From IMG/VR virus record IMGVR_UViG_2681813318_000003: a stretch of DNA of 64,000 bases. The stretch is one strand, 5' to 3'. Every line of letters starts with the position of its first letter. The first letter of the stretch is position 1. The position numbers were made by a program, and so were the translations under genes. This DNA is from a virus. Taxonomy: Duplodnaviria > Heunggongvirae > Uroviricota > Caudoviricetes. The notes under the pieces are model-generated. The model had not been told where the DNA came from. It did not search any database and saw nothing but the letters and a program-made list of their open reading frames with translations. Positions 16,232-31,162 of this stretch are shown one piece after another.

Positions 16232-17260
16232 TTACAGAGAGTCCAGCTCTCTCAGTAGGTCATCCAGACCTTCATCTTCCGTCGCAGATGCGGTTGCTAC
16301 AGATGTCGCTGCGACTGCTTCAGACTCTTTGACTGATACGGCAACGGCAGCGGAACTTGCCTCTGGTTTAAATTCAGTTTCAACGGCACGGAGGATTTCT
16401 TCATCAACCAGACTGGTTGGTTCAGAAGCCGGTGTGTGCGCGGTTGCTACAGCCGTCGCTCCTTCTGTATGACCAGTGACAGAGCCAAATCCAGGTAGTG
16501 CCGCAGCCGATGTTTTCGCGGTTGAGGAAATTGCTGGTGCAGATGCTGCGGCAGTTGGTGCAGCGATGCCAATCAGACGACCCATAGTGCGAACTGTCGA
16601 CAGAAGACGAGTTTCATCAGCCTGATTTGCGTATGCGATCAGATCATGCTGAGTGTTCCAGAATTTATCTTCGATATCGCCTTTGTAGACTTTACGCTTA
16701 GGCGAGACGTCATATTTGGTATCGCGACCAGAGCCAGTACGTTTAATCAGGAATGCGTAGCCTTCCTCTTTGCTCAGTGGATTGCCGATATCATCAGCGA
16801 TGTCTTCGGTGATTGCTTTGCAGATATCATCGAATACAGTAGACGGCAGCTCGATTAACTGGCATTTCTCAGCATCTGCGAAATCCTCACGAGCAGAAAG
16901 AATGCCGTTGACCAGGTAGCGAGGAGTGGCACGCATTTGACCGATGCGTTCTTCCATTGCTTTGTTACCCTTGTGACGAGCGCGACCTTCCATCACCATT
17001 TCGCATAGCTGACAAGCGCGACCGTGAGTATGTTGCTCACAAATATAAGCGTTGGTTGCTTCTTTACCTTCCTCGTTCTGATACTTAACGTAGTGCATAC
17101 CGAAAGTCTGGAAGAACTTACCGTTTGGGTCGTCTTTATTCGGGAAGATGCGGATATAGTTGACGCCGTCTTTTAAGCGAGTCAGATCAACGTTGTTACC
17201 ACGTTTGGCGGCAATGTCTTCACGAGTTTTGTTAAGCAAATCAAGTAATGTCTTAGACAT
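16232..17260 (-). CDS. single-stranded DNA-binding protein (T4 gp32-like)
   Basis: 342 aa; N-terminal GVNYIRIFPNKDDPNG and CEQHTHGRACQLC zinc-site region resemble gp32 (from memory); Ala/Ser-rich linker and acidic C-terminal tail DEGLDDLLRELDSL. Confidence 0.65.
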   Translation of the reverse strand: MSKTLLDLLNKTREDIAAKRGNNVDLTRLKDGVNYIRIFPNKDDPNGKFFQTFGMHYVKYQNEEGKEATNAYICEQHTHGRACQLCEMVMEGRARHKGNKAMEERIGQMRATPRYLVNGILSAREDFADAEKCQLIELPSTVFDDICKAITEDIADDIGNPLSKEEGYAFLIKRTGSGRDTKYDVSPKRKVYKGDIEDKFWNTQHDLIAYANQADETRLLSTVRTMGRLIGIAAPTAAASAPAISSTAKTSAAALPGFGSVTGHTEGATAVATAHTPASEPTSLVDEEILRAVETEFKPEASSAAVAVSVKESEAVAATSVATASATEDEGLDDLLRELDSL

Positions 17261-17377
17261 GTGTTTCTCCTTGTTGTGATTTGGCCGATGGCGCTATGCG
17301 CGTTGGGCTTTCGTTCATTCGTGGCTCTTTCGAGCTGTTAAATGATAGATCAGTACTTACTTATTATCTATCAAAAA

Positions 17378-17833
17378 TCAACGGGGAGTAATAAAGCGTT
17401 CAGAGCCTAATCGCTCTAATTCAACGATGGCCATCTTTGACGCCTGAACGATCATGTCTCGGCGATGCGAAAAGGCGGCGACAGCATGTTTGTATATGTC
17501 TGCGATGTGCCGTGCTTCATCCAACTTCTGCCGTTTAGACAGATACTGTGGGTTTGTTTTAACCTTAGCGTCCAGTACAGATTCGTTGAACTTAATGCCG
17601 TTCATACTCAAGTTCTTACGCTCTGTGTCGTATAGCTTTGCTTCAACAGCTTCAAGGTTAAGTTTTGCTTCTGCGACACTTCTTTCTGCATGGGCGAGTT
17701 TTGAGCCATATTCCATCAACAGGCGGGGTTGTCTACGCCAGACTTCTTCCAGATTGTCTCGGTCAAACTCGAGATCAGACATTATTTTCTCGTAAATATC
17801 GGCGATCATGCACATTTCCTTATCACTTATCAT
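17378..17833 (-). CDS. hypothetical protein (possible UvsY-like recombination mediator)
   Basis: 151 aa helical protein next to SSB and recombinase; assignment is positional only. Confidence 0.45.
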   Translation of the reverse strand: MISDKEMCMIADIYEKIMSDLEFDRDNLEEVWRRQPRLLMEYGSKLAHAERSVAEAKLNLEAVEAKLYDTERKNLSMNGIKFNESVLDAKVKTNPQYLSKRQKLDEARHIADIYKHAVAAFSHRRDMIVQASKMAIVELERLGSERFITPR

Positions 17834-17936
17834 TTTGTATTGATTATATCATTGTAATGATGAGGCAATGAGCTTGAAGATAGGGGGGGGTGAGGGGATA
17901 AGGGAAAACATGGCCTTTATGGCCATGTTTATTGGA

Positions 17937-20900
17937 TCACGTCTTAATAGTTTCTGCTACGTCGGCTAATATCGCTTCTAGTCGTTCTCCCTCTTCAGGT
18001 CTGAAGTAAAGAATGTTGGGGTTAAACCCGTAAAAGACAGTAACGTCAAGGTCTGGAAGATACTCCTTCCTGCCGACCAAATCGGATGGCTTGTTTTTGT
18101 TGTTAAACAATGCCGTTGCCCGGCTGCCACACGTCAGCACATAGGTCGGACGCACCAGATTGATCTCTTCACGTATAAAGTCGGTGAACTGGCCGATCTC
18201 GTCTTTGGTGTAGTCTTTTTCTTTGTCTTTAACCTTCTTGCAAACGCCTGTGACATAGAGATCGCCCATTCGTAAATCTCCAGCCGTCAATAGCTTGGCC
18301 TTAAAGTCGTCGTATCCGTTCTCCATAAAGTAACCGGTTCGAGCATCATTGCCGTTCGCATTGTCCAGAATGATCATGATTTTCGGCTTAATACCAATGC
18401 TGGGGCGGATTAGTTCATCACCTAAGCCCATTTCAGCCGCCATCCGCGTCATGAGTACGTTAATTTCAGCCGAACGTTTGGGGTTCATCTCAAACGGACG
18501 TGAGGCTTTAACTGCGTCTATGACAAGATTTCCCATCAATTCAGCCTGGTCGCGTAGGCGCTCTGGAGCAGTTGCTGGCAGACTACCTGGCTCGATGGAT
18601 GCAAACGCCCCTACTTTTTGCAGCGATTCGCGCACTCGACTATTACAGGCACGTTTCTCGACAGCTTCTTCGAATTGCGCCAGTGACTCGAATTTGCCGC
18701 CAACTTTTTCTCGCGCTCTCATGATGGCTTGGCAGCCATTCTCAGAACACCCCTTCACAGCAGAGAATGGCGCATACAGCACCTGGCTGCCATCTTCAAG
18801 CGTGCGGATCTCGATTCGGTTAGATGACACGTTAACGTCTGGTGGCAATACGCGAATGCCATAGGTCAGCGCATCTTTAACCAGCCCCTGGTGTTTATCT
18901 TCGCCAAGAATAGTGAGAGCAGCAGCGAAAAACTCTGCGGGATAATGAGTTTTCAACCACATAGATTGATAACTGATTAAGGAGTAAGCAACAGAGTGTG
19001 ATTTGTTGAACTGGTAGGCACCATTTTTTTCGAATGCGGTCCAGATCTCCTTCGCTTTCATCTCTGATAGCCCTGGATGTGACGCTGTAACGCGTACTGC
19101 GTTTATAGGTAGTTTTGCGCCGTGCTCAAGTGCCTCTTCGACAGTTTTCAGAGTTCCGTCTTCGCATTTAAAATGTTCCGCACGGTGAATGCGCTGTGTA
19201 GTGCCATCTTCCAGCTCAACGTCTATCCAGCCAGCTTGAGCCTGAACGATGAACTTCTCGCCCATGCTCTTCATTTTTTCCATGTTCTTCTTACCGATTG
19301 CGGAACGCACAGCGTCAGCTTCAGCCATTGTGAAGCCGGCAAGCAATCGAGTCGCGTTCATCGTCTGTTCCTGATAGAGAATCACGCCATTTGTTTCCGC
19401 GGTAAGTTCATCAAGAACGGGGTGTAATGATTCCGGCGTCATAAAGCCTTTGGCGACAGAAACATAGTCATCCAACATGCCTGATTGAATTGGCCCTGGC
19501 CGGAAGAGCGCAGTCGTAGCGACGACCGTTTTAAAGCTCATTGGCTCAATTCCACCACCTAAATCTTTAAGCAGCTTGCGCATTGGGCCTGATTCAAGCT
19601 GGAAAACACCTTGAGTATACCCAGCAGCAAAACCATCCAGCACCTTGCGATCTTCAAGAGAAATGGCATCAAGATTGATATCTTCACCTGTGTTCTCTTT
19701 TATGTAGCGTTTTGCACTATCGAGCAAATCGAGAGTTGCCAGGCCAAGCACGTCCAGCTTAATTAGGCCCATAGCCTCGCAGTAACGCTTGTCAAATGCG
19801 ATACAACGCGCGTCACCACGGCGCTCAACCGGTGTACGTTCTGTCAGAGGAACACCTGCTACGATCATCCCTGCCGCATGTCTACCAAAGCCACGCATAA
19901 GGCTTTGTAACTTGCAGGCTGCATTGAATGCATCAGGATATTTTGTTGCGTATTTGTCGAGACTTGCCAGTTGTTCGCGCAGCTCTTCCAATGGAAGGCT
20001 ATCATCCTCGACGTTCTTCAGTTCTTTTGATACCGCCATATCTGCGGACTCCACACCATAAATACGAGCGGTATCACGTAGTGCAGAGGCTGCGCCCAGG
20101 TAGGTGAAGTTCGGAATGCCTGCAACGTAATCTTCGCCGTAGCGTTCATTCAGATACTCGATCACTTCATGGCGACGTGCCTGGCTGAAGTCCAAATCCG
20201 CATCCGGCAAGTCGAGACGCTCAGGGTTGATGAAACGTTCAAACAGAAGACCGTGACGGATTGGGTCGACGTTGGTTATGCCTATGCACCATGCCACCAG
20301 AGATCCAGCGGAGGAACCACGACCAGGCCCGACAGGAATGCCAGTTTCACGGCTGTGATTCATCAGATCGCGTACCATCAGGAAGTAACCACAAAATCCC
20401 AGGCGAGTCAGCGTGTCCATTTCGTACTTTAGCCGCTCAACATAAACCCTGTTCTCAGAAGCAGGTGGTGTGTAGCCAAACTCTTTTGTGGTAAGACGTT
20501 TACGCAGCCCTGCAACAGCCAGTTTCATAAGCGTTGCAGGCTCGTCGTCTGCCATCTTTGGCAGTGCTGGCGGCAATTCATGCCAGCGCCATGTGCAGGC
20601 ATCGATAATGGTATCCTGCGTTGTTGAGGCCATTGCAGCTGTTACCGGCACATCCATGCGAACGGAGAAGGCTTTAAGCGCCTCAAGGAGATGGCGGCGA
20701 CCATTGACGGCGTTATCTCGCTGGTGGGGGATACGCAGACGATGCGGCTGGTCGATTTTGATGTTGTTCGTAACCATGTGCGCAATGTCTTTAATGTCTG
20801 CATCGTCGATCGATTCGTAATAAGCGGGATAGAACGCCACTGGCTCTATTTTCAATGCGCTGGCGACTTTCATCGCCCGGACGTTAATCTGGTCGTAGAA

Positions 20901-21455
20901 TGGGGTAGGGTGCGGATAAACCACACTATAGAAGTTGTCTTTTCCACCCGCTGTAATCAGTGTGCTTATGATTTTTGCAAAATCGTTGCGTTGGAACACG
21001 CTACCGATGTCGGAAGTAAGCAGGATGATGTTGCCTTTGGCATATGTAGAAACCAACTGTTCGAGCGAGAGACGCGGTACAAAGTAGAACTGTTCTCGTG
21101 TGTTGGCCGCCGTCATTAGTTCGCAGATGTCGCGATATCCTTTCTCATTTTTAATTAGAGCGGTAAACGAGTAGTTACGTCCTCGCTCTAATGATTCCAT
21201 ACATCCCTTAGATTCTTTAGCAAGTTTAGCCCGGTGCTCGTATGTGGGATCATCAACGATATTTAGTTTCACACCACAAATAACCGCCATGTCGTCACCA
21301 GCGGCACGTTGTAGTGGAATAACACTCGCAATATTCATGCTATCTGCTGAAATTACAGCGGTGTAGCCAGCTTCTCTGGCAATCTTCACCGCGTTTTCTG
21401 CTTTTAAAGCCGACTCCCCAAGTGAGAAGTCAGTTCGAACCATCAGTGCCTTCAT
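17937..21455 (-). CDS. dnaE: DNA polymerase III alpha subunit (DnaE family)
   Basis: 1172 aa; polymerase core motifs [48 protein letters not shown]; N-terminal PHP-like region apparently degenerate. Confidence 0.9.
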   Translation of the reverse strand: [1172 protein letters not shown]

Positions 21456-21640
21456 GTGTTTTTACCTTTCTGGTTTTTTTTGATTTTGTCATTTGGGAAG
21501 CCTACGAACTTCCCATGCATCGAAATCGCAACTTCTTTTGCTGATTGGTGACAATCAGGCTTGTCTGGACACACCAGACAAGCCTTACCAGTTTCAGAAG
21601 CAGCGATAAGAGAGCCGAAACATCCTTTACGCACGATCAA
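21452..21640 (-). CDS. small Cys-rich hypothetical protein
   Basis: 62 aa with CxxC...C...C; overlaps neighbours at both ends; may be spurious because it spans the 5' leader of the polymerase gene. Confidence 0.25.
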   Translation of the reverse strand: MIVRKGCFGSLIAASETGKACLVCPDKPDCHQSAKEVAISMHGKFVGFPNDKIKKNQKGKNT

Positions 21641-22872
21641 CCAAATATTTTTTGAACAACTTCACGAGCCGCTTGTGCAGAAGCTGAAGGGAGTTTGTTA
21701 ATGAAAGAACGCTCAATACCTGTCACAAAGTCGCCTCGCATCATTCCAATCTTGGCCGACAACAAAAGTTCACGAGGGCCAATTGGCTGACTGATAAGGT
21801 GTTCTTCGTATCCATCGCGAACGATACCGGCAAACTTAACCATCTTTTCTGCGTATTCATCCACGATACCGGCATTTATCAACATGTTGATCTCTGCCTC
21901 TTTGCTCATGTATTTCACATTCGAAACGATGCCAAAACGCGAAAAGTTCGCGGCGTTCTGGATGTTTGTACCCTGGTACAAGCCGGTTTCATCACCAGAT
22001 CCGTTCGTGTTGCCAGTGCCAATGAAAGCAAACCGTTCATGCGGAGTAATGCGACGCCATTCTGGAGTTGCCTCTTTGATGACCAACGCTTCACCTTCCA
22101 GCACTGGCTGATACACGCCAAGAATTTGTGGAAACGCAAAGTCGTATTCATCCGCGAGGTAAACCCAGCCATGCTTCATTGCGAGCGCAAGCAAGCCAGG
22201 TTCGAAATACGTAGAGCCATCACGCGCCAGAATTTGCCCCGTAACATGTGCCTCTTCCATTGATGCTGTATGTTGGGCACGGATCAACGGACGATTGAGC
22301 AAAGCACATAGCTGTGTAGGCAATGACGATTTGCCTGTTCCTGCATGACCCCACAAATAGCCAGGTATGCCAAGTTCAAGCATCATGAAAATATCTTTGA
22401 TCAGTTCGAAGTCGCCATATACGTAGCCTTTCTTCACTTCGGGAACGAACTCTGGATACGGCGTATTGACGTTGACGCTAACCATGAGCGGCGTCCCACG
22501 TTTTGTTCCGAGTTCTTCCACCGTTACGTTTAGCAGTTCGTGAGCTGCGACCAGATCTGTCTTGTACTCAACTGTGCCTGTGTAGCCAGGGCTACTGGTC
22601 AAGCCAGAAGATTTGGCCATTTCGCTTTTTTGCTCGGCACGTTTAGCTTGAATTGCATCAAGTGCCTTTTTCGATAGCGTTGGTTCATCTGGAAACTGCG
22701 TTGTGTACATTTTCAGTACGGTGTCAGGATCGGCATCTTTTACTGACTCAGGAATGCCCTCGCAATTACCATTGGCTACATGGGACTTAAAATAGTGAAA
22801 TGATTTGCCGCACCACTTGCAAACAAGGTAATCAGAAGGATTTTTTTCATTTTGCAGTGCAGTAGTCGTCAT
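21637..22872 (-). CDS. CobS/MoxR-like AAA+ ATPase
   Basis: 411 aa; Walker A GHAGTGKSS, Walker B VYLADEYDF; N-terminal CxxC...C zinc-ribbon-like; paired with a downstream vWA protein. Confidence 0.65.
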   Translation of the reverse strand: MTTTALQNEKNPSDYLVCKWCGKSFHYFKSHVANGNCEGIPESVKDADPDTVLKMYTTQFPDEPTLSKKALDAIQAKRAEQKSEMAKSSGLTSSPGYTGTVEYKTDLVAAHELLNVTVEELGTKRGTPLMVSVNVNTPYPEFVPEVKKGYVYGDFELIKDIFMMLELGIPGYLWGHAGTGKSSLPTQLCALLNRPLIRAQHTASMEEAHVTGQILARDGSTYFEPGLLALAMKHGWVYLADEYDFAFPQILGVYQPVLEGEALVIKEATPEWRRITPHERFAFIGTGNTNGSGDETGLYQGTNIQNAANFSRFGIVSNVKYMSKEAEINMLINAGIVDEYAEKMVKFAGIVRDGYEEHLISQPIGPRELLLSAKIGMMRGDFVTGIERSFINKLPSASAQAAREVVQKIFG

Positions 22873-22967
22873 GCGTTTTTCCTTTGTTCTCTAATGAGCG
22901 TTCAACTTCTTATATAAATATATCATCATCTATCGTAAGTGGTTACTTATCGTTAAGGCTGTTTTGT

Positions 22968-25076
22968 TCACTTTAAAATGATACGAGATAGTTCAGTAAC
23001 TACAGATGAACCAAGACTATCAACGCTCGTTACCAGGGCATGATTTGAGTAAAATCTCTCCGGTGCGTCAGTCATGATGCCAATTGCCATCAAATCAATA
23101 TCAGTCTGCGTTTCAATTTGCTTCGCAACTGAACGCAAATGAGCGTCAAAACCTCTCCCAACAGCCCACGGCGCGCCATCACTCAGAACAAGCATGATCT
23201 TCCTGTCCTCCAAGCGACCGGAAAATAACGATGCAAGGCTGGCTATGCTTTCACCATCCACGTTATTAAGAAGTGGGAATGTGTAGCCTACGCACCCCAT
23301 ACGTGAGCGAACTTCGCGAGAATTTACCTTTTCATTCCAATTTTTGATGATAGGTAGCATTAAAGATTCAAAGCGAGAGAACTCATACTTGACAGCCTTA
23401 AGTTCTCCTGCCGCCATATGACTACCAAATGTAGTGAAGCCGGTGATAATGTTGGGAACATTTATTCGATCAAGGGCATCTGCGATGGTATATGCACTTG
23501 CAAGAGCCAATTGTATCGTTATACCACTCATTGAACCTGATAAATCAATCACTTGTTGAACACAGGCGTTAACGGCTTTAGATTCTTCTTTTTTACGAAA
23601 CACGCGATCATCATTCATTGCTAATCTGTAGATACTAGAACCATGAATGCGCCCCCGACGCTGGCCCGGTATAAACTGAACTCTGTTTCTGCTTGCTATT
23701 GCTCGCTCCAGGTCTTTTGCCAGCGTCGACGAAACACCTGACGAAAGATGCTTTTCAATATATTTGTCGAAGAGCTGGTTGCCTTCAGGAACGATGCGAT
23801 AGCGGCTGATTGGATATCCTCCTAAATCAATATCGGAGAATGTTTTAATAAGCCGTTTGATATGGGCTTCTGCCTGATCAATCGAGCCGATGAAGTCGTA
23901 TGAGCGATTGTATGGCCTGTATTCGCTTTTCGAGCTTTCTGTTAACTCGCTTTTAATCGTTTCGGATAGAGCATCTTCTGTCATGCCTCCGACTTCATCT
24001 TCTATGCTATCCAGCTCCTCTAAAGCCTCTTCCAGACTCATTTTTGACGGAGTTGGAATATCTGAAGAGCCGTCTTCTGTCGTTTTTCTTTTTTCGTGGT
24101 CAGCGATAAATGATTCTGACACCGCGTTATCAGAAGCATCAGAATCTGATACCTCTTTATCATTTTCTGTATCATCGAATATTGTTTCTGATGATTCAGA
24201 ATTATCTGAATCATCACTGTCGTTATTATCATGTTTGTGCTTACTGTGTGATTCTGATTTGATAGATTTGTGATTATCTAACGCTGAGGGTGTCTCATGA
24301 TCTTCGTTGTCTTCATTGTTTTCTCCAGAGGCATCCGTCTGGTCAGCGTCTGAAGGATCGGAAGTTTTTCCCGGAGCTGACTCCTTACCTTTGCTTTCAC
24401 TTTCAGTGTCTTTGAGGATCTTAGCTATGGTCGCAGCCACCTTTACACAATCCTCGGTGCAAGACATGTTACGCACGGCCACATCGATACCATGTTCTTT
24501 TAATAATGAAATTGGTTTCTCAATGACAGGCCAATATTCATCCATGAAATCTACGAACGGTGCTTGGCCATCCCAGGCTCTTACAACCGGACAGAGAAAG
24601 AAGTTTAGAAAAAGCGCGCGCTGATCTTTGCCACAATAAGCAATAGCCTCTGAAGCCTTTGGTTTAAAGACTTTTTCGATTATAAGGCGCTGAGTTGCCA
24701 TCAGATTACGTCTTGTTCCGTTAAAGACCTGACCCATTTTTCGCTCGATGAACACGTCTTCTAAGGCATTCCATAGCGACCAGGAAGGAACGCGTCCTTT
24801 TTCTCTCATTTTGTTGGACACACGAATATCGGTAAACAAAATGTGAGCAACCTCATGATCGAGAAATCCGCGCACAGCATTCATCAATGCCGGTGTTGCG
24901 TTATCCGGGATTGATGGGATGTTTACGAGAATTGGCTCTCCATCATCGTTATAGCGTACATAAGCGTCGTCCCCTCGTTCTGCAACAGGGATGTTTTTAC
25001 CTGAAAGGAGAGCGACTACTCGTTTTACACTGTCACGGAAGTCCTGAACCTCTTTGATAGAACGTTTTTTAGACAT
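22968..25076 (-). CDS. CobT-like von Willebrand factor A domain protein with long acidic Ser/Asp-rich linker
   Basis: 702 aa; C-terminal vWA MIDAS motif DLSGSMSG; central low-complexity acidic region (about aa 220-330). Confidence 0.65.
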   Translation of the reverse strand: MSKKRSIKEVQDFRDSVKRVVALLSGKNIPVAERGDDAYVRYNDDGEPILVNIPSIPDNATPALMNAVRGFLDHEVAHILFTDIRVSNKMREKGRVPSWSLWNALEDVFIERKMGQVFNGTRRNLMATQRLIIEKVFKPKASEAIAYCGKDQRALFLNFFLCPVVRAWDGQAPFVDFMDEYWPVIEKPISLLKEHGIDVAVRNMSCTEDCVKVAATIAKILKDTESESKGKESAPGKTSDPSDADQTDASGENNEDNEDHETPSALDNHKSIKSESHSKHKHDNNDSDDSDNSESSETIFDDTENDKEVSDSDASDNAVSESFIADHEKRKTTEDGSSDIPTPSKMSLEEALEELDSIEDEVGGMTEDALSETIKSELTESSKSEYRPYNRSYDFIGSIDQAEAHIKRLIKTFSDIDLGGYPISRYRIVPEGNQLFDKYIEKHLSSGVSSTLAKDLERAIASRNRVQFIPGQRRGRIHGSSIYRLAMNDDRVFRKKEESKAVNACVQQVIDLSGSMSGITIQLALASAYTIADALDRINVPNIITGFTTFGSHMAAGELKAVKYEFSRFESLMLPIIKNWNEKVNSREVRSRMGCVGYTFPLLNNVDGESIASLASLFSGRLEDRKIMLVLSDGAPWAVGRGFDAHLRSVAKQIETQTDIDLMAIGIMTDAPERFYSNHALVTSVDSLGSSVVTELSRIILK

Positions 25077-25174
25077 GGCTAATCCTTTGTTATGAAAACA
25101 AATTATTTACTAGTGTGTTTAATGTAGCACTGCGCGAACAGGGAACTAAGCCATTCGCGCAGGGAGAAGAGGGG

Positions 25175-25387
25175 TTAACAGATTCTGACGGCTAAAGACC
25201 CGGAGCCGGTATTGAGAAGCGTGAAGCGTTTGTTGTTAAGTTCGAATATAAAGCCAGTTGTGTCATTCACACCAACCTGAATCTGCTCATTCGGTAGATC
25301 GGTGAGGATGTCAGCTACACACTCATCAGCTAATTTCTGTACGTGTCCGATCTCAAGAGCGATTAGGCTGGAAATAGTGGTGTTCAT
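25175..25387 (-). CDS. hypothetical protein
   Basis: 70 aa ORF divergent from the XRE regulator gene. Confidence 0.4.
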   Translation of the reverse strand: MNTTISSLIALEIGHVQKLADECVADILTDLPNEQIQVGVNDTTGFIFELNNKRFTLLNTGSGSLAVRIC

Positions 25388-25638
25388 TCAATCAATCCAT
25401 TCTAACTTATACTATGGTAAGGAATACTACTAAAATTTGTATCAATACTGAATACATTCATATCATATGCAAGTTAATTTTCTTACCTATTTTGGGCTAG
25501 TTTTTCTCCGTGCAATGGCCTTTAACCGGTCTTTTAAGTGCCTATCGAAAAAAATGATAATAGCTTTACAACCCTAACCTTTGATGTAATATCGGTAAGC
25601 ACTTACCAGAGAGAATTGAACGCGCAAAGGTTGTAACC

Positions 25639-26025
25639 ATGTCTGATAACAAGATTGAATTTATAGAAAGTCGCTACGCTGCTTTTATCGCAGGGTTGAT
25701 TGAATCCTCACCTATGAGCCAGGCCCAGATAGCCAAAACAATTGGGTATAAAAACGCCAACAACCTTTCTTTAATTAAAAGCGGCAAAATTCCTTTGCCT
25801 ATCGATAAGGTTCGTCCGCTGGCGCTGGCACTGGGTATTGAGCCAAGTCGTCTTATGATGATGGTGCTGGAAGAACGCCAACCCGAACTCGCAGCATTTT
25901 TATACAAAGAAGGCACTGCTCCTCTTAACGAGGACGAAAAACAGGTTCTTGCTGCATATAACGAGCGATTCGGTAAAGAGAAAGGCGCATCACAAAAGGT
26001 TGTTGAGGCCATAAAGTCTCTATGA
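25639..26025 (+). CDS. XRE-family helix-turn-helix transcriptional regulator (candidate repressor)
   Basis: 128 aa; HTH segment MSQAQIAKTIGYKNANNLSLIKSGK; AAAGG RBS; divergent 250 bp control region upstream containing a GGTAAGCACTTACC palindrome. Confidence 0.65.
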   Translation: MSDNKIEFIESRYAAFIAGLIESSPMSQAQIAKTIGYKNANNLSLIKSGKIPLPIDKVRPLALALGIEPSRLMMMVLEERQPELAAFLYKEGTAPLNEDEKQVLAAYNERFGKEKGASQKVVEAIKSL

Positions 26026-27123
26026 AAAATTTACACGAATAAGCTCTGTTGATAGACGATCTCCCTTAAATTTGTGGTCAATTTCGTCTAAATCCGGTTG
26101 CTCTACGATTGATGCGATGTACGTCGAGAAACTTTCTAAGGCGTCTCGCATCTCGTCCATATAATCGTGCCGGTCGTAGACCCGATCTATCCCCTCAAGA
26201 CTGTGGTTCATGATTTTACGTGATACCTCCTGGCTTATGCCTAATGCTGGGAAGTAACTACGCGCAGTACGGCGCAAATCTCGGGGTGTAAATGGCTCAA
26301 GCTCCATCAGTTCTGGTCGTTCCAGAATACGACGTAATGCCTGGGCTATTGCCACTTTAGACATAGGAAGGTCTTTCCCGATTTTTTTATTCGAAGGCAC
26401 GAGCCACTGGCTGTCTTTACCGTATTCGAACAACTCTTCAATGCATGTGCGCATTAATGTGCTTAAAGGCAGCGAATGCTCACGTGCTGACTTGTTTCTC
26501 TTGCCTTGATTCCAAACCCCACGCTTAAGATTGAACTCACTTTTTTTAGCCCGCAGTACTTCGTCAGGTCGTCTTGCTGATACAAGACACAGTCTGGCCG
26601 CCCATTTTGTACCAGCGCACACATTGAAGTAGTCCCATATATTCCAGAACACCCATACCTCTGCGTCAGTCAGCTTCCGCTCGCGGGGCGTGGGCTTTGC
26701 GCCACCGGCAACTTTGTTAAGTGACATATCGTTTAACGGTGACACGTCTATCATCCCCTGGAAGGCGCACCAGCTAAGGAACTGCTTCATCAGAGAGAAA
26801 ACGCGGCGGCCCATAACAATTTTGCCATCCAGTATTAGTGGGTTGACCAGTTGGTTCACCATGAACCTATTAATGTCACTTACTTTTACATCGGCAATGT
26901 GCGGCAAAACATGTATCAAAATACAATGAACAGCGATCTCTGGCCGACGTCTGGTTATCAGCAGAGATAAGCGAGTGAATAACAGGAATGCGTCCGAGAA
27001 TCTCATGTCATTGCTGACCTGGGAGATCATAACGGCCTGCATTTGAGATGCTCTTTCGAGATACTCTATCGCCTCTTTTGAGGTGTTCTCCGCAGCGCGT
27101 GCTCTGTCAAAGCTATTTTTCAT
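26020..27123 (-). CDS. tyrosine site-specific recombinase (integrase/resolvase family)
   Basis: 367 aa; C-terminal catalytic region PRDLRRTARSYF...KIMNHSLEGIDRVYDRHDY (R..H..R..Y arrangement). Confidence 0.8.
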   Translation of the reverse strand: MKNSFDRARAAENTSKEAIEYLERASQMQAVMISQVSNDMRFSDAFLLFTRLSLLITRRRPEIAVHCILIHVLPHIADVKVSDINRFMVNQLVNPLILDGKIVMGRRVFSLMKQFLSWCAFQGMIDVSPLNDMSLNKVAGGAKPTPRERKLTDAEVWVFWNIWDYFNVCAGTKWAARLCLVSARRPDEVLRAKKSEFNLKRGVWNQGKRNKSAREHSLPLSTLMRTCIEELFEYGKDSQWLVPSNKKIGKDLPMSKVAIAQALRRILERPELMELEPFTPRDLRRTARSYFPALGISQEVSRKIMNHSLEGIDRVYDRHDYMDEMRDALESFSTYIASIVEQPDLDEIDHKFKGDRLSTELIRVNFS

Positions 27124-30508: not shown

Positions 30509-30595
30509 TGGCGGAGAGTAATGGAATCGAACCATCATCGCTTGCGCAATGGGACGGTTTTCAAGACCGCTTGAGCACCATGCTCCCTACTCTCC
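30509..30595 (-). tRNA. tRNA-Ser (anticodon UGA), type II with long variable arm
   Basis: Manual cloverleaf: acceptor GGAGAGT/ACTCTCC, anticodon stem-loop GCGGT-CUUGAAA-ACCGT (as in E. coli serT), T-arm GATGG-TTCGATT-CCATT, encoded CCA. Confidence 0.7.
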
Positions 30596-30915
30596 GGCCG
30601 TTGTGGTGGCCGGTACTGAACTCCGACACAGGGTTGTAGCAAACCCCGCAAAGCGCGCACTACTGTAGTTGCGGCACATCAGCCTGTGCATTCATCACAA
30701 CGGTAAGATCACTACCTTTCGACCAGTCATTGTGCACATGAACGACGATTAACCGTAATGATATTATCGTTGTGTTGTGAAGCCAGATGCTTATCTTCTG
30801 GTTGCTTCAAAGAGCTGCACTTCCTCACAACGGTAAGAGCACTGGTCTGACTCTATCGATTTACGGCCTTGTGGGTCAGTATCGCCGATTCGCCCAATGC
30901 TCTTACCTGTTGTGT

Positions 30916-30991
30916 TGGTGCCGGTTAACGGACTTGAACCGCTGGCCATTCGCTTACAAAGCGACTGCTCTACCAACTGAGCTAAACCGGC
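30916..30991 (-). tRNA. tRNA-Thr (anticodon UGU)
   Basis: 76 nt: GCCGGTT acceptor, D-arm GCTC-AGTTGGTA-GAGC, anticodon loop TTTGTAA, T-arm AGCGG-TTCAAGT-CCGTT, encoded CCA. Confidence 0.8.
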
Positions 30992-30995
30992 AATT

Positions 30996-31082
30996 TGGTG
31001 GGGAGTGATGGAGTCGAACCACCCGAGTCGCCATGACAGTAGATTTACAGTCTACACCGCTACCTCTACGGACTAACTCCCC
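30996..31082 (-). tRNA. tRNA-Tyr (anticodon GUA), type II
   Basis: 87 nt: acceptor GGGGAGT/ACTCCCC, anticodon stem-loop GTAGA-CTGTAAA-TCTAC, long variable arm, T-arm GGTGG-TTCGACT-CCATC, encoded CCA. Confidence 0.8.
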
Positions 31083-31087
31083 TAAAT

Positions 31088-31162
31088 TGGCGATGGTGGG
31101 TGGATTCGAACCACCGACCAGTTGGTTAACAGCCAACTGCTCTACCGCTGAGCTACACCATC
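31088..31162 (-). tRNA. tRNA-Asn (anticodon GUU)
   Basis: 75 nt: acceptor GATGGTG/CACCATC, D-arm GCTC-AGCGGTA-GAGC, anticodon stem-loop GTTGG-CTGTTAA-CCAAC, T-arm GGTGG-TTCGAAT-CCACC, encoded CCA. Confidence 0.85.

Follow-up and report, generated by a model that had tools for sequence, protein, structure and literature searches.

The genes described here lie in a 64,000-nucleotide stretch of DNA (hereafter the window; IMG/VR virus record IMGVR_UViG_2681813318_000003) that comes from an SSU5-like phage-plasmid of Escherichia coli. An earlier note on this DNA had placed a CobS/CobT-like AAA+ ATPase and a VWA protein at 21637-25076, and we find both open reading frames (ORFs) there. It described the ATPase as directly followed by the VWA protein of 702 amino acids (aa), which holds in plus-strand coordinates but is reversed in transcription: the CobT-like gene comes first (upstream) and the CobS-like gene second, with 95 bases between the two ORFs. 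The features of the pair are as follows.

22968-25076, minus strand: CobT-like gene, 702 aa, with a zincin-like N-domain, an acidic linker and a VWA/MIDAS C-domain.
24405-25076, minus strand: N-terminal domain of the CobT-like protein (aa 1-224), predicted M48-like zincin fold.
24843-24857, minus strand: HEVAH (aa 74-78), an HExxH zinc-metallopeptidase motif seen in the translation and in the alignment of relatives.
24744-24761, minus strand: EDVFIE (aa 106-111), candidate third zinc ligand and catalytic helix.
23952-24404, minus strand: Ser/Asp/Glu-rich acidic low-complexity linker (aa 225-375).
23562-23693, minus strand: candidate 'shaft' segment (aa 462-505), assigned only by alignment to the CobT shaft.
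22971-23561, minus strand: VWA domain (aa 506-702), with MIDAS DLSGS at 23532-23546 and D633; Pfam CobT_C covers aa 492-701.
21637-22872, minus strand: CobS-like gene, 411 aa, with a zinc finger, a spacer and a MoxR-type AAA+ module.
22648-22833, minus strand: candidate Ros/MucR-type zinc-finger domain of the ATPase (aa 14-75), with C18, C21, H31 and C37.
21640-22452, minus strand: AAA+ module (aa 141-411), with Walker A at 22327-22350 and Walker B at 22141-22155.

The earlier note had staked its AAA+ (MoxR/CobS-type) and VWA assignments on domain searches, and these returned strong matches for both. The CobS-like ATPase was recognized by Pfam AAA_5 (E=2e-15; 57.4 bits, threshold 22) and by PHROG 249, labelled 'porphyrin biosynthesis' (E=2e-106), and it aligns with the Brucella CobS structure 9ujv (E=1.8e-25). 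Alignment to Brucella CobS, together with the residues named in a preprint (10.64898/2026.07.21.739949), assigns Walker A to K181, Walker B to D241/E242, sensor-1 to N288, the arginine finger to R312 and sensor-2 to R367, and all six residues are invariant across 15 homologues with identities down to 44%. The pore-facing helix-2 insert also aligns with that of Brucella CobS; it is four residues shorter and its contact residues differ, as expected if it has co-evolved with its own shaft. By these motifs the protein belongs to the MoxR clade of AAA+ ATPases: both Walker motifs, both sensors, the arginine finger and the helix-2 insert are recognizable.

Relative to cellular CobS the ATPase carries an extra N-terminal region of about 140 aa. 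This region contains a predicted zinc knuckle, C18-x2-C21-x9-H31-x5-C37, followed by 'Y...FPD.P.LS', and the pattern C-x2-C-x9-H-x3-5-H/C is present in 99 of 120 ATPase homologues. The top match in the PDB for a profile of the domain is Ros87 (2jsp, E=3e-4). Seven of 15 relatives match Pfam ROS_MUCR (PF05443), the best at E=3e-4 and under the gathering score. Neither of the cellular CobS proteins examined (Pandoraea; Brucella CobS, 328 aa) has a zinc finger, and in the literature searched no paper named both MucR and CobS. A different N-terminal extension without a zinc finger occupies the first ~110 residues of CobS from cyanophage P-SSM2 (L095 5746-6840); a stretch within that protein, 'ISYQTVTKKLKKY', resembles a helix-turn-helix by eye, and no Pfam match backs the resemblance.

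The CobT-like protein matches Pfam CobT_C (PF11775) at E=7e-82 (274.8 bits against a threshold of 21), Pfam CobT (PF06213) at E=1.8e-27 (97 bits against 26.1) and PHROG 1576 at E=2e-299. Its match to Brucella CobT (9uka, E=1e-12) is confined to the C-terminal part (query 439-697, chain 346-616). Here the MIDAS motif DLSGS (residues 511-515) and D633 of 'LSDGAP' align with the crystallographic MIDAS residues of Brucella CobT, in D-x-S-x-S and 'ISDGAP', and on these motifs the C-terminal domain is a VWA domain with a MIDAS site that is predicted to bind metal. The segment immediately before it aligns with the shaft of CobT that enters the CobS ring, which was described as Q373-R413 (preprint 10.64898/2026.07.21.739949).

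Between the N-domain and this C-terminal region lies the acidic linker, which the earlier note had singled out at roughly 100 residues. It is present but longer, at about 150 aa (the most extreme part spanning ~120 aa), with 27 serines, 24 aspartates and 23 glutamates and a net charge of -34. Nor is it special: in the most acidic 80-residue window the median fraction of Asp plus Glu is 0.475 in 120 cellular CobT proteins and 0.50 in 124 phage-type relatives, and real CobT has a disordered linker of ~90 residues that is invisible in every cryo-electron microscopy map (preprint 10.64898/2026.07.21.739949). We therefore rejected the linker as an unusual feature, since cellular CobT shares it. Among 25 distinct 702-aa variants from E. 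coli, 32% of linker sites vary against 8% in the flanking folded domains, and in relatives anything from 411 to 527 residues separates HExxH from MIDAS. With its composition conserved and its sequence not, the linker behaves as a flexible tether.

What sets the phage protein apart lies in the N-domain, in a motif that the earlier note had overlooked along with the zinc finger of the ATPase and the 4-base overlaps between cobS and dnaE described below. An alignment of 26 diverse relatives shows no variation at D73, H74, E75, H78, E106, D107 or E111, and among the 150 best representatives in a family of 1148 clusters, 148 keep HExxH. The motif is absent from all 120 cellular CobT proteins compared, in which the same position reads 'D-SMALR' or similar. 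It is kept in the P-SSM2 'peptidase' (HEVGH ... CEDVRIE) and in Vibrio phage JSF27 (HECYH). An AlphaFold2 model of the N-domain, with a predicted local distance difference test score (pLDDT) of 92, has a helix followed by a three-stranded sheet and further helices; Brucella CobT_N has the same topology and was likened by its authors to M48C peptidases (preprint 10.64898/2026.07.21.739949). Sequence and profile searches of the PDB with the N-domain did not recover Brucella CobT_N, so the likeness to real CobT_N rests on the Pfam CobT model, the description of the fold and a MAFFT alignment. The best PDB match of the N-domain profile is the anti-CRISPR protein AcrIIA26 (9zq6_B, E=0.006) over 45 residues (aa 95-139) around 'LNxVEDxFIE', which could be chance or a distant relationship.

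We compared the pair with the NCBIfam equivalog models of the aerobic cobaltochelatase. The window ATPase scores 84.9 bits with TIGR01650 (CobS), for which the cut-off is 558.55, and the match is confined to residues 141-411. The CobT-like protein scores 70 bits with TIGR01651 (CobT; cut-off 759.05), matching over residues 297-697 only and not in the N-domain. A cellular-type control pair from a Pandoraea plasmid scored 584.8 bits (TIGR01650) and, over its full length, 716.5 bits (TIGR01651), and its gene order, cobS then cobT, is the opposite of the phage order. The window pair is thus CobS/CobT-like by homology and, judged by these models, paralogous to CobS and CobT, not a set of chelatase equivalogs. 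The control pair has features of its own. On the Pandoraea oxalativorans plasmid pPO70-1 (L093 3414-6858) cobS-cobT directly follows ureG, next to structural and accessory genes of urease and not among cobalamin genes; its CobT falls just below the equivalog cut-off (716 against 759 bits) and bears the NCBI name 'CobT-related'. The pPO70-1 pair may be a chelatase-type motor for another metallocentre.

The window, which covers one half of the phage-plasmid, has no CobN-like ORF among its seven ORFs of at least 450 aa. Three of these are for the tail (two tail-fibre/tail proteins and the tape-measure protein), and the other four encode NrdA, an SbcC-like protein, DnaE and the CobT-like protein. 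Nor is there a B12-dependent enzyme among them; the ribonucleotide reductase is NrdA, of class I. E. coli itself lacks de novo B12 synthesis and has the salvage branch only. B12 production in E. coli took heterologous cobN, cobS and cobT together with ~30 other genes (PMC6249242).

The pair sits, as the earlier note had it, between the polymerase and the recombinase/regulator region, with DnaE downstream and a helix-turn-helix (HTH) regulator and a tyrosine recombinase upstream. The neighbouring features are listed here.

17937-21455, minus strand: DnaE-type DNA polymerase III alpha, 1172 aa, with Pfam PHP, DNA_pol3_alpha, finger and HHH_6 domains; the next gene of the operon.
21452-21640, minus strand: Cys-rich 62-aa ORF (PHROG 6337, 1e-36), bridging cobS and dnaE through the 4-base overlaps TTGA and ATGA.
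25175-25387, minus strand: 70-aa ORF (PHROG 2627, 9e-41; Cyrano CYRAN_46), first gene of the leftward operon.
25639-26025, plus strand: divergent HTH regulator (HTH_19 / PHROG 8), homologue of CYRAN_45, the putative lysogeny repressor of phage Cyrano.
26020-27123: tyrosine recombinase, upstream of the pair and past the HTH regulator.

Read directly from the sequence, two overlaps link the cobS-like gene to the polymerase gene: the stop of the cobS-like gene overlaps the TTG start of the 62-aa ORF (TTGA), and the stop of that ORF overlaps the ATG of dnaE (ATGA). Downstream of dnaE, Pfam and PHROG matches identify a UvsY-like protein and a gp32-like single-strand-binding protein. In the lysogen of E. 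coli LF82 carrying Cyrano, published expression values are 7.8 for the CobT-like gene, 6.7 for the CobS-like gene and 10.1 for DnaE, against 95.8 for the adjacent repressor and 294 for HicA (PMC9928086, S1 table). The pair is therefore silent along with dnaE while Cyrano replicates as a plasmid, since its values are low like that of DnaE and unlike that of the repressor.

Several smaller features of the region were recorded. The 62-aa ORF has cysteines at C7, C21, C24 and C30, with H31 adjacent to the last. The C-terminus of the window DnaE (aa 1027-1171) matches only PHROGs of unknown function, and no uracil-DNA-glycosylase match was found there at E<=0.01. At 25123-25155 on the minus strand, between the 70-aa ORF and the start of the cobT-like gene, a 9-bp inverted repeat (CTGCGCGAA...TTCGCGCAG) encloses a loop of 15 bases, and no T-run follows it. 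It may be an attenuator or an RNA structure, because expression in Cyrano lysogens falls across it from 20 (70-aa ORF) to 8 (cobT-like gene). A promoter and terminator scan of 17000-26200 gave no sites in excess of those in shuffled sequence. In Cyrano a hicA/hicB toxin-antitoxin pair lies between the dnaE and uvsY-like genes (L097 1253-2101); the cassette is absent from that place in the window, where dnaE and the uvsY-like gene are only ~100 bases apart (17834-17936). A cluster of four tRNA genes occupies 30509-31162 on the minus strand (Ser-tga, Thr-tgt, Tyr-gta, Asn-gtt), and the matching region of the Cyrano record has three annotated tRNA genes (Ser, Thr, Asn).

In the 4.5 kb around the pair the window shares 99.1% identity with Escherichia phage CMS-2020a and 98.8% with Cyrano, the SSU5-like phage-plasmid carried by E. 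coli LF82; for Salmonella phage SSU5 itself the figure is 75%, over 62% of that length. The window locus is one of hundreds of near-identical, already annotated copies and adds nothing beyond the identical records. The claim that such pairs recur in phages is well borne out. DNA similarity matched 455 plasmid records, and protein similarity to the VWA domain found a CobT-like gene in 1032 plasmid records (Klebsiella 347, Escherichia 229, Acinetobacter 147, Enterobacter 92, Yersinia 63, Salmonella 49), among them plasmids of S. Typhi CT18 and Y. pestis. A CobS-like gene occurs in 494 phage records, and the CobT-like N-domain is found in 1148 cluster representatives. The usual labels in these records are 'cobalamin biosynthesis protein CobT', 'AAA family ATPase' and 'porphyrin biosynthesis protein'. 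In the Cyrano record (OV696614.1), CYRAN_47 and CYRAN_48, which correspond to the genes at 21637-25076 of the window, are called 'dimethylbenzimidazole phosphoribosyltransferase' and 'cobalamin synthetase'/'cobalamin synthase'. Salmonella CobT and CobS, which are unrelated proteins, have these functions; the Cyrano labels are therefore an annotation error arising from a name collision between two cob nomenclatures.

Two scans of viral contigs with the ATPase, ranked by similarity to the first sequence, gave only close SSU5-like relatives, and distant gene contexts were taken from contigs encoding distant homologues and from GenBank phages. In ~100-kb viral contigs and integrated prophages whose CobS-like proteins are 44-51% identical to that of the window, the order of genes is conserved: recombinase, divergent HTH regulator, small ORF, CobT-like, CobS-like, one or two small ORFs, DnaE, gp32, 5'-3' exonuclease and RecA. 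Of the 92 loci compared, 87 have the CobT-like gene as the immediate upstream neighbour of the CobS-like gene. Pseudomonas phage ZY21 has the order primase, ligase, CobT, CobS, one ORF, DnaE. Cyanophage cobS has long been known, and in the T4-like cyanophage P-SSM2 the 'peptidase' and cobS genes lie between gp46 and gp45/gp44. In the Vibrio podophage JSF27 (48.7 kb) the pair shares the early/DNA-metabolism arm with genes for a helicase, Pol I, a ligase and a thymidine kinase, and the virion genes are all on the opposite strand. The pair thus stands among replication genes in four phage lineages that use three polymerase families. Two side observations concern the distant relatives. Their small ORFs between the cobS-like gene and dnaE vary, with L087 and L091 encoding a 224-aa protein that has a weak match to sigma-70 region 2, and their DnaE proteins (L087-L092, for example L087 12387-15809) end in a domain of the uracil-DNA-glycosylase family (PF03167).

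From this combination of homology, motifs, genomic linkage and silence in lysogens we infer how the pair assembles, that it may have protease activity, and what kind of client it serves. On balance we favour, with a little more belief than doubt, a phage-specific MoxR-type AAA+ motor with a VWA/MIDAS adaptor, working as a machine that remodels, and probably cleaves, its client during the early replicative phase. On the model of the solved CobST complex, the CobS-like ATPase would form a hexameric ring. The adaptor segment just before the VWA domain (~462-505) would enter the ring pore as the 'shaft', the N-domain of the adaptor would dock on the small AAA+ subdomain, and the acidic linker would act as a flexible tether. 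ATP hydrolysis would then be relayed to the client protein, positioned between the N-domain and the MIDAS face, and this client would probably be cleaved, or remodelled in a metal-dependent way. That the client is a protein that is remodelled, and probably cleaved, is suggested by the intact zincin site and the lack of a CobN among the large ORFs of the window. The pair would be expressed with the replisome genes in early lytic growth and is silent in the plasmid-prophage state, and its linkage to and co-repression with the replisome genes make the early replicative phase the most likely time of action. Rather than a corrin, the most likely client is a protein, of phage or host, that matters for replication or host takeover.

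A bolder form of this proposal is that phage cobS/cobT, which many viromes count as B12 auxiliary metabolic genes, is not metabolic at all but encodes an ATP-driven, MIDAS-targeted zinc-protease machine, an active-peptidase and possibly ancestor-like relative of the chelatase motor that acts with the replisome early and is directed by its zinc finger in SSU5-like phages, Nickievirus and related ~100-kb phages. We advance it tentatively, as something that may well prove too strong. Several observations weigh against the replicative, proteolytic account in either form. HExxH is lost in Pseudomonas phage ZY21 (SEISK), and as cellular CobT also lacks it, proteolysis cannot be the universal core function; from the motif counts, proteolysis by phage CobT-like proteins is probably usual and not indispensable. 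The zinc-finger domain is not basic, with a median net charge of -1 and 25% of homologues positive, which argues against strong DNA binding and weakens the idea of the finger as a DNA tether. The CobS proteins of cyanophage P-SSM2 and of the ICP2-like JSF27 have other N-terminal extensions in its place. Early and replication modules also house host-takeover and anti-defence genes, so linkage is no proof of a role in replication.

The earlier note called the role of the pair unknown. PMC9983427 says the same, and two further papers propose roles that differ. In the first (Liu et al. 2021, PMC8651126) viral cobST would be B12 auxiliary metabolic genes, with phage CobS and CobT standing in for or supplementing host subunits and driving cobalt insertion by the host CobN (or a ChlH/CobN-like subunit) and so raising cobalamin during infection. 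The homology to CobS and CobT is clear, down to the MIDAS site and the shaft region, databases label the pair accordingly, and cyanobacterial and haloarchaeal hosts possess CobN/ChlH-type subunits (PMC8651126). For the present family we nonetheless consider this explanation very improbable, and for enterobacterial hosts it fails: the equivalog scores fall far under their cut-offs, the window offers neither CobN nor a B12-dependent enzyme among its ORFs of at least 450 aa, E. coli lacks the de novo pathway, and the Salmonella route is anaerobic and CobN-independent (PMC6249242). The CobT-like gene is present in over 1000 phage-plasmid records from enterobacteria and Acinetobacter. The N-domain, which in the holoenzyme contacts CobN, is undetectably similar to cellular CobT_N by sequence and retains a peptidase motif lost in every cellular CobT examined. 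The second proposal, made for T4-like jumbo phages by analogy with the MoxR/VWA tail system of the archaeal virus ATV (Iyer et al. 2021, PMC7824862), has the pair help to assemble virion parts while the peptidase domain processes structural proteins. Gene position speaks against such a chaperone and protease, for in the window over 22 kb separates the pair from the tail genes and the pair belongs to the overlapping dnaE operon, the JSF27 pair is on the early arm and on the strand opposite the virion genes, the P-SSM2 pair is between gp46 and gp45/gp44, and the ZY21 pair is between the ligase gene and dnaE. We accordingly hold it to be improbable, even though the same architecture, a MoxR protein with a metallopeptidase-VWA fusion, was recognized in PMC7824862, a MoxR/VWA pair is needed for tail development in an archaeal virus according to that paper, and the pair behaves as a core gene in myo-cyanophages (PMC9983427).

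A third alternative differs from the account we favour only in the client, so that the two are inseparable on present data. Here the pair would be an early, ATP-driven, MIDAS-targeted metalloprotease that removes a host defence factor, a nucleoid protein or a replication competitor. Its placement early and directly downstream of the lysogeny switch suits this, as do the intact protease motif and the spread of the family over unrelated phages; the similarity of the 'NxxEDxFIE' segment to AcrIIA26 (E=0.006), weak and unverified, points the same way. Set against these, defence models (PADLOC) give nothing meaningful, the only match being DrmE at E=0.0014 in the linker, near-core conservation across very different hosts would be unusual for anti-defence genes, and the protease motif is lost in ZY21. 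We judge a host-takeover or anti-defence protease unlikely, while taking it seriously. The idea that the pair is a maturation factor for ribonucleotide reductase, by analogy with NorQD and CbbQO, was set aside, JSF27 having the pair and no annotated ribonucleotide reductase.

The phage pair (Iyer et al. 2021), viral cobST (Liu et al. 2021) and cyanophage cobS were already known. What is added here is the failure of the pair in tests for a chelatase, the contrast in the peptidase motif (148/150 against 0/120), the zinc finger, the placement with replication genes across lineages and the gene overlaps. The genes are common: cobS is near-universal in marine myo-cyanophages, and the pair is found in more than 1000 phage-plasmid records from clinical Enterobacteriaceae and Acinetobacter, including the pHCM2 and pMT1 types. 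It is routinely labelled 'porphyrin/cobalamin biosynthesis'. If the pair is a remodelling and protease machine of the replication phase, inventories of B12 auxiliary metabolic genes in viromes are inflated, phage-plasmids have a conserved and druggable early function that goes unassigned, and the chelatase motor has an active-protease relative that bears on its evolution.

Among known systems, the solved Brucella melitensis CobST complex (9ujv/9uka) provides a detailed comparison. Its CobS is a MoxR-like AAA+ ATPase with the same Walker, sensor and arginine-finger residues, and its CobT has an M48-like N-domain, a disordered acidic linker and a MIDAS VWA domain preceded by a shaft segment. The window pair differs in its intact HExxH motif, the zinc finger of its ATPase, its shorter helix-2 insert and its T-then-S gene order, and the window residues aligned to the shaft contacts are not the same. 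The cellular pairs NorQ/NorD, CbbQ/CbbO, CoxD/CoxE, RavA/ViaA and BchI/BchD share the plan of a hexameric MoxR motor with a VWA/MIDAS adaptor that delivers remodelling or metal insertion, and BchD, like CobT, has an acidic linker. In contrast to the window protein, NorD, CbbO, CoxE, ViaA and BchD are without a zincin N-domain, and they serve known clients that have their genes nearby or in the host. The N-terminal domain of the ATPase resembles the Ros/MucR family of C2H2 proteins (Ros87, 2jsp) in its C-x2-C-x9-H-x3-5-H/C spacing, followed by a 'T.EEY...(F/W)P' stretch and a helical tail; it is fused to an AAA+ ATPase and not to an oligomerization domain, is non-basic, and has Cys in place of the last His. 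The phage pairs of MoxR and metallopeptidase-VWA proteins (cyanophage cobS/'peptidase', T4-GC146/150; group 2.2 jumbo phages, PMC7824862) have the same two-gene architecture. The P-SSM2 'peptidase' has HEVGH, CEDVRIE, an acidic linker and DWSGS, and its CobS is of the same AAA+ type; compared with the window, identity is ~30% in the AAA+ module only, and three small ORFs lie between its two genes. With its adjacent genes, its matches to PHROG 249 and PHROG 1576 and its HExxH motif, the window pair fits this phage class of MoxR motors and putative metallopeptidase-VWA adaptors.

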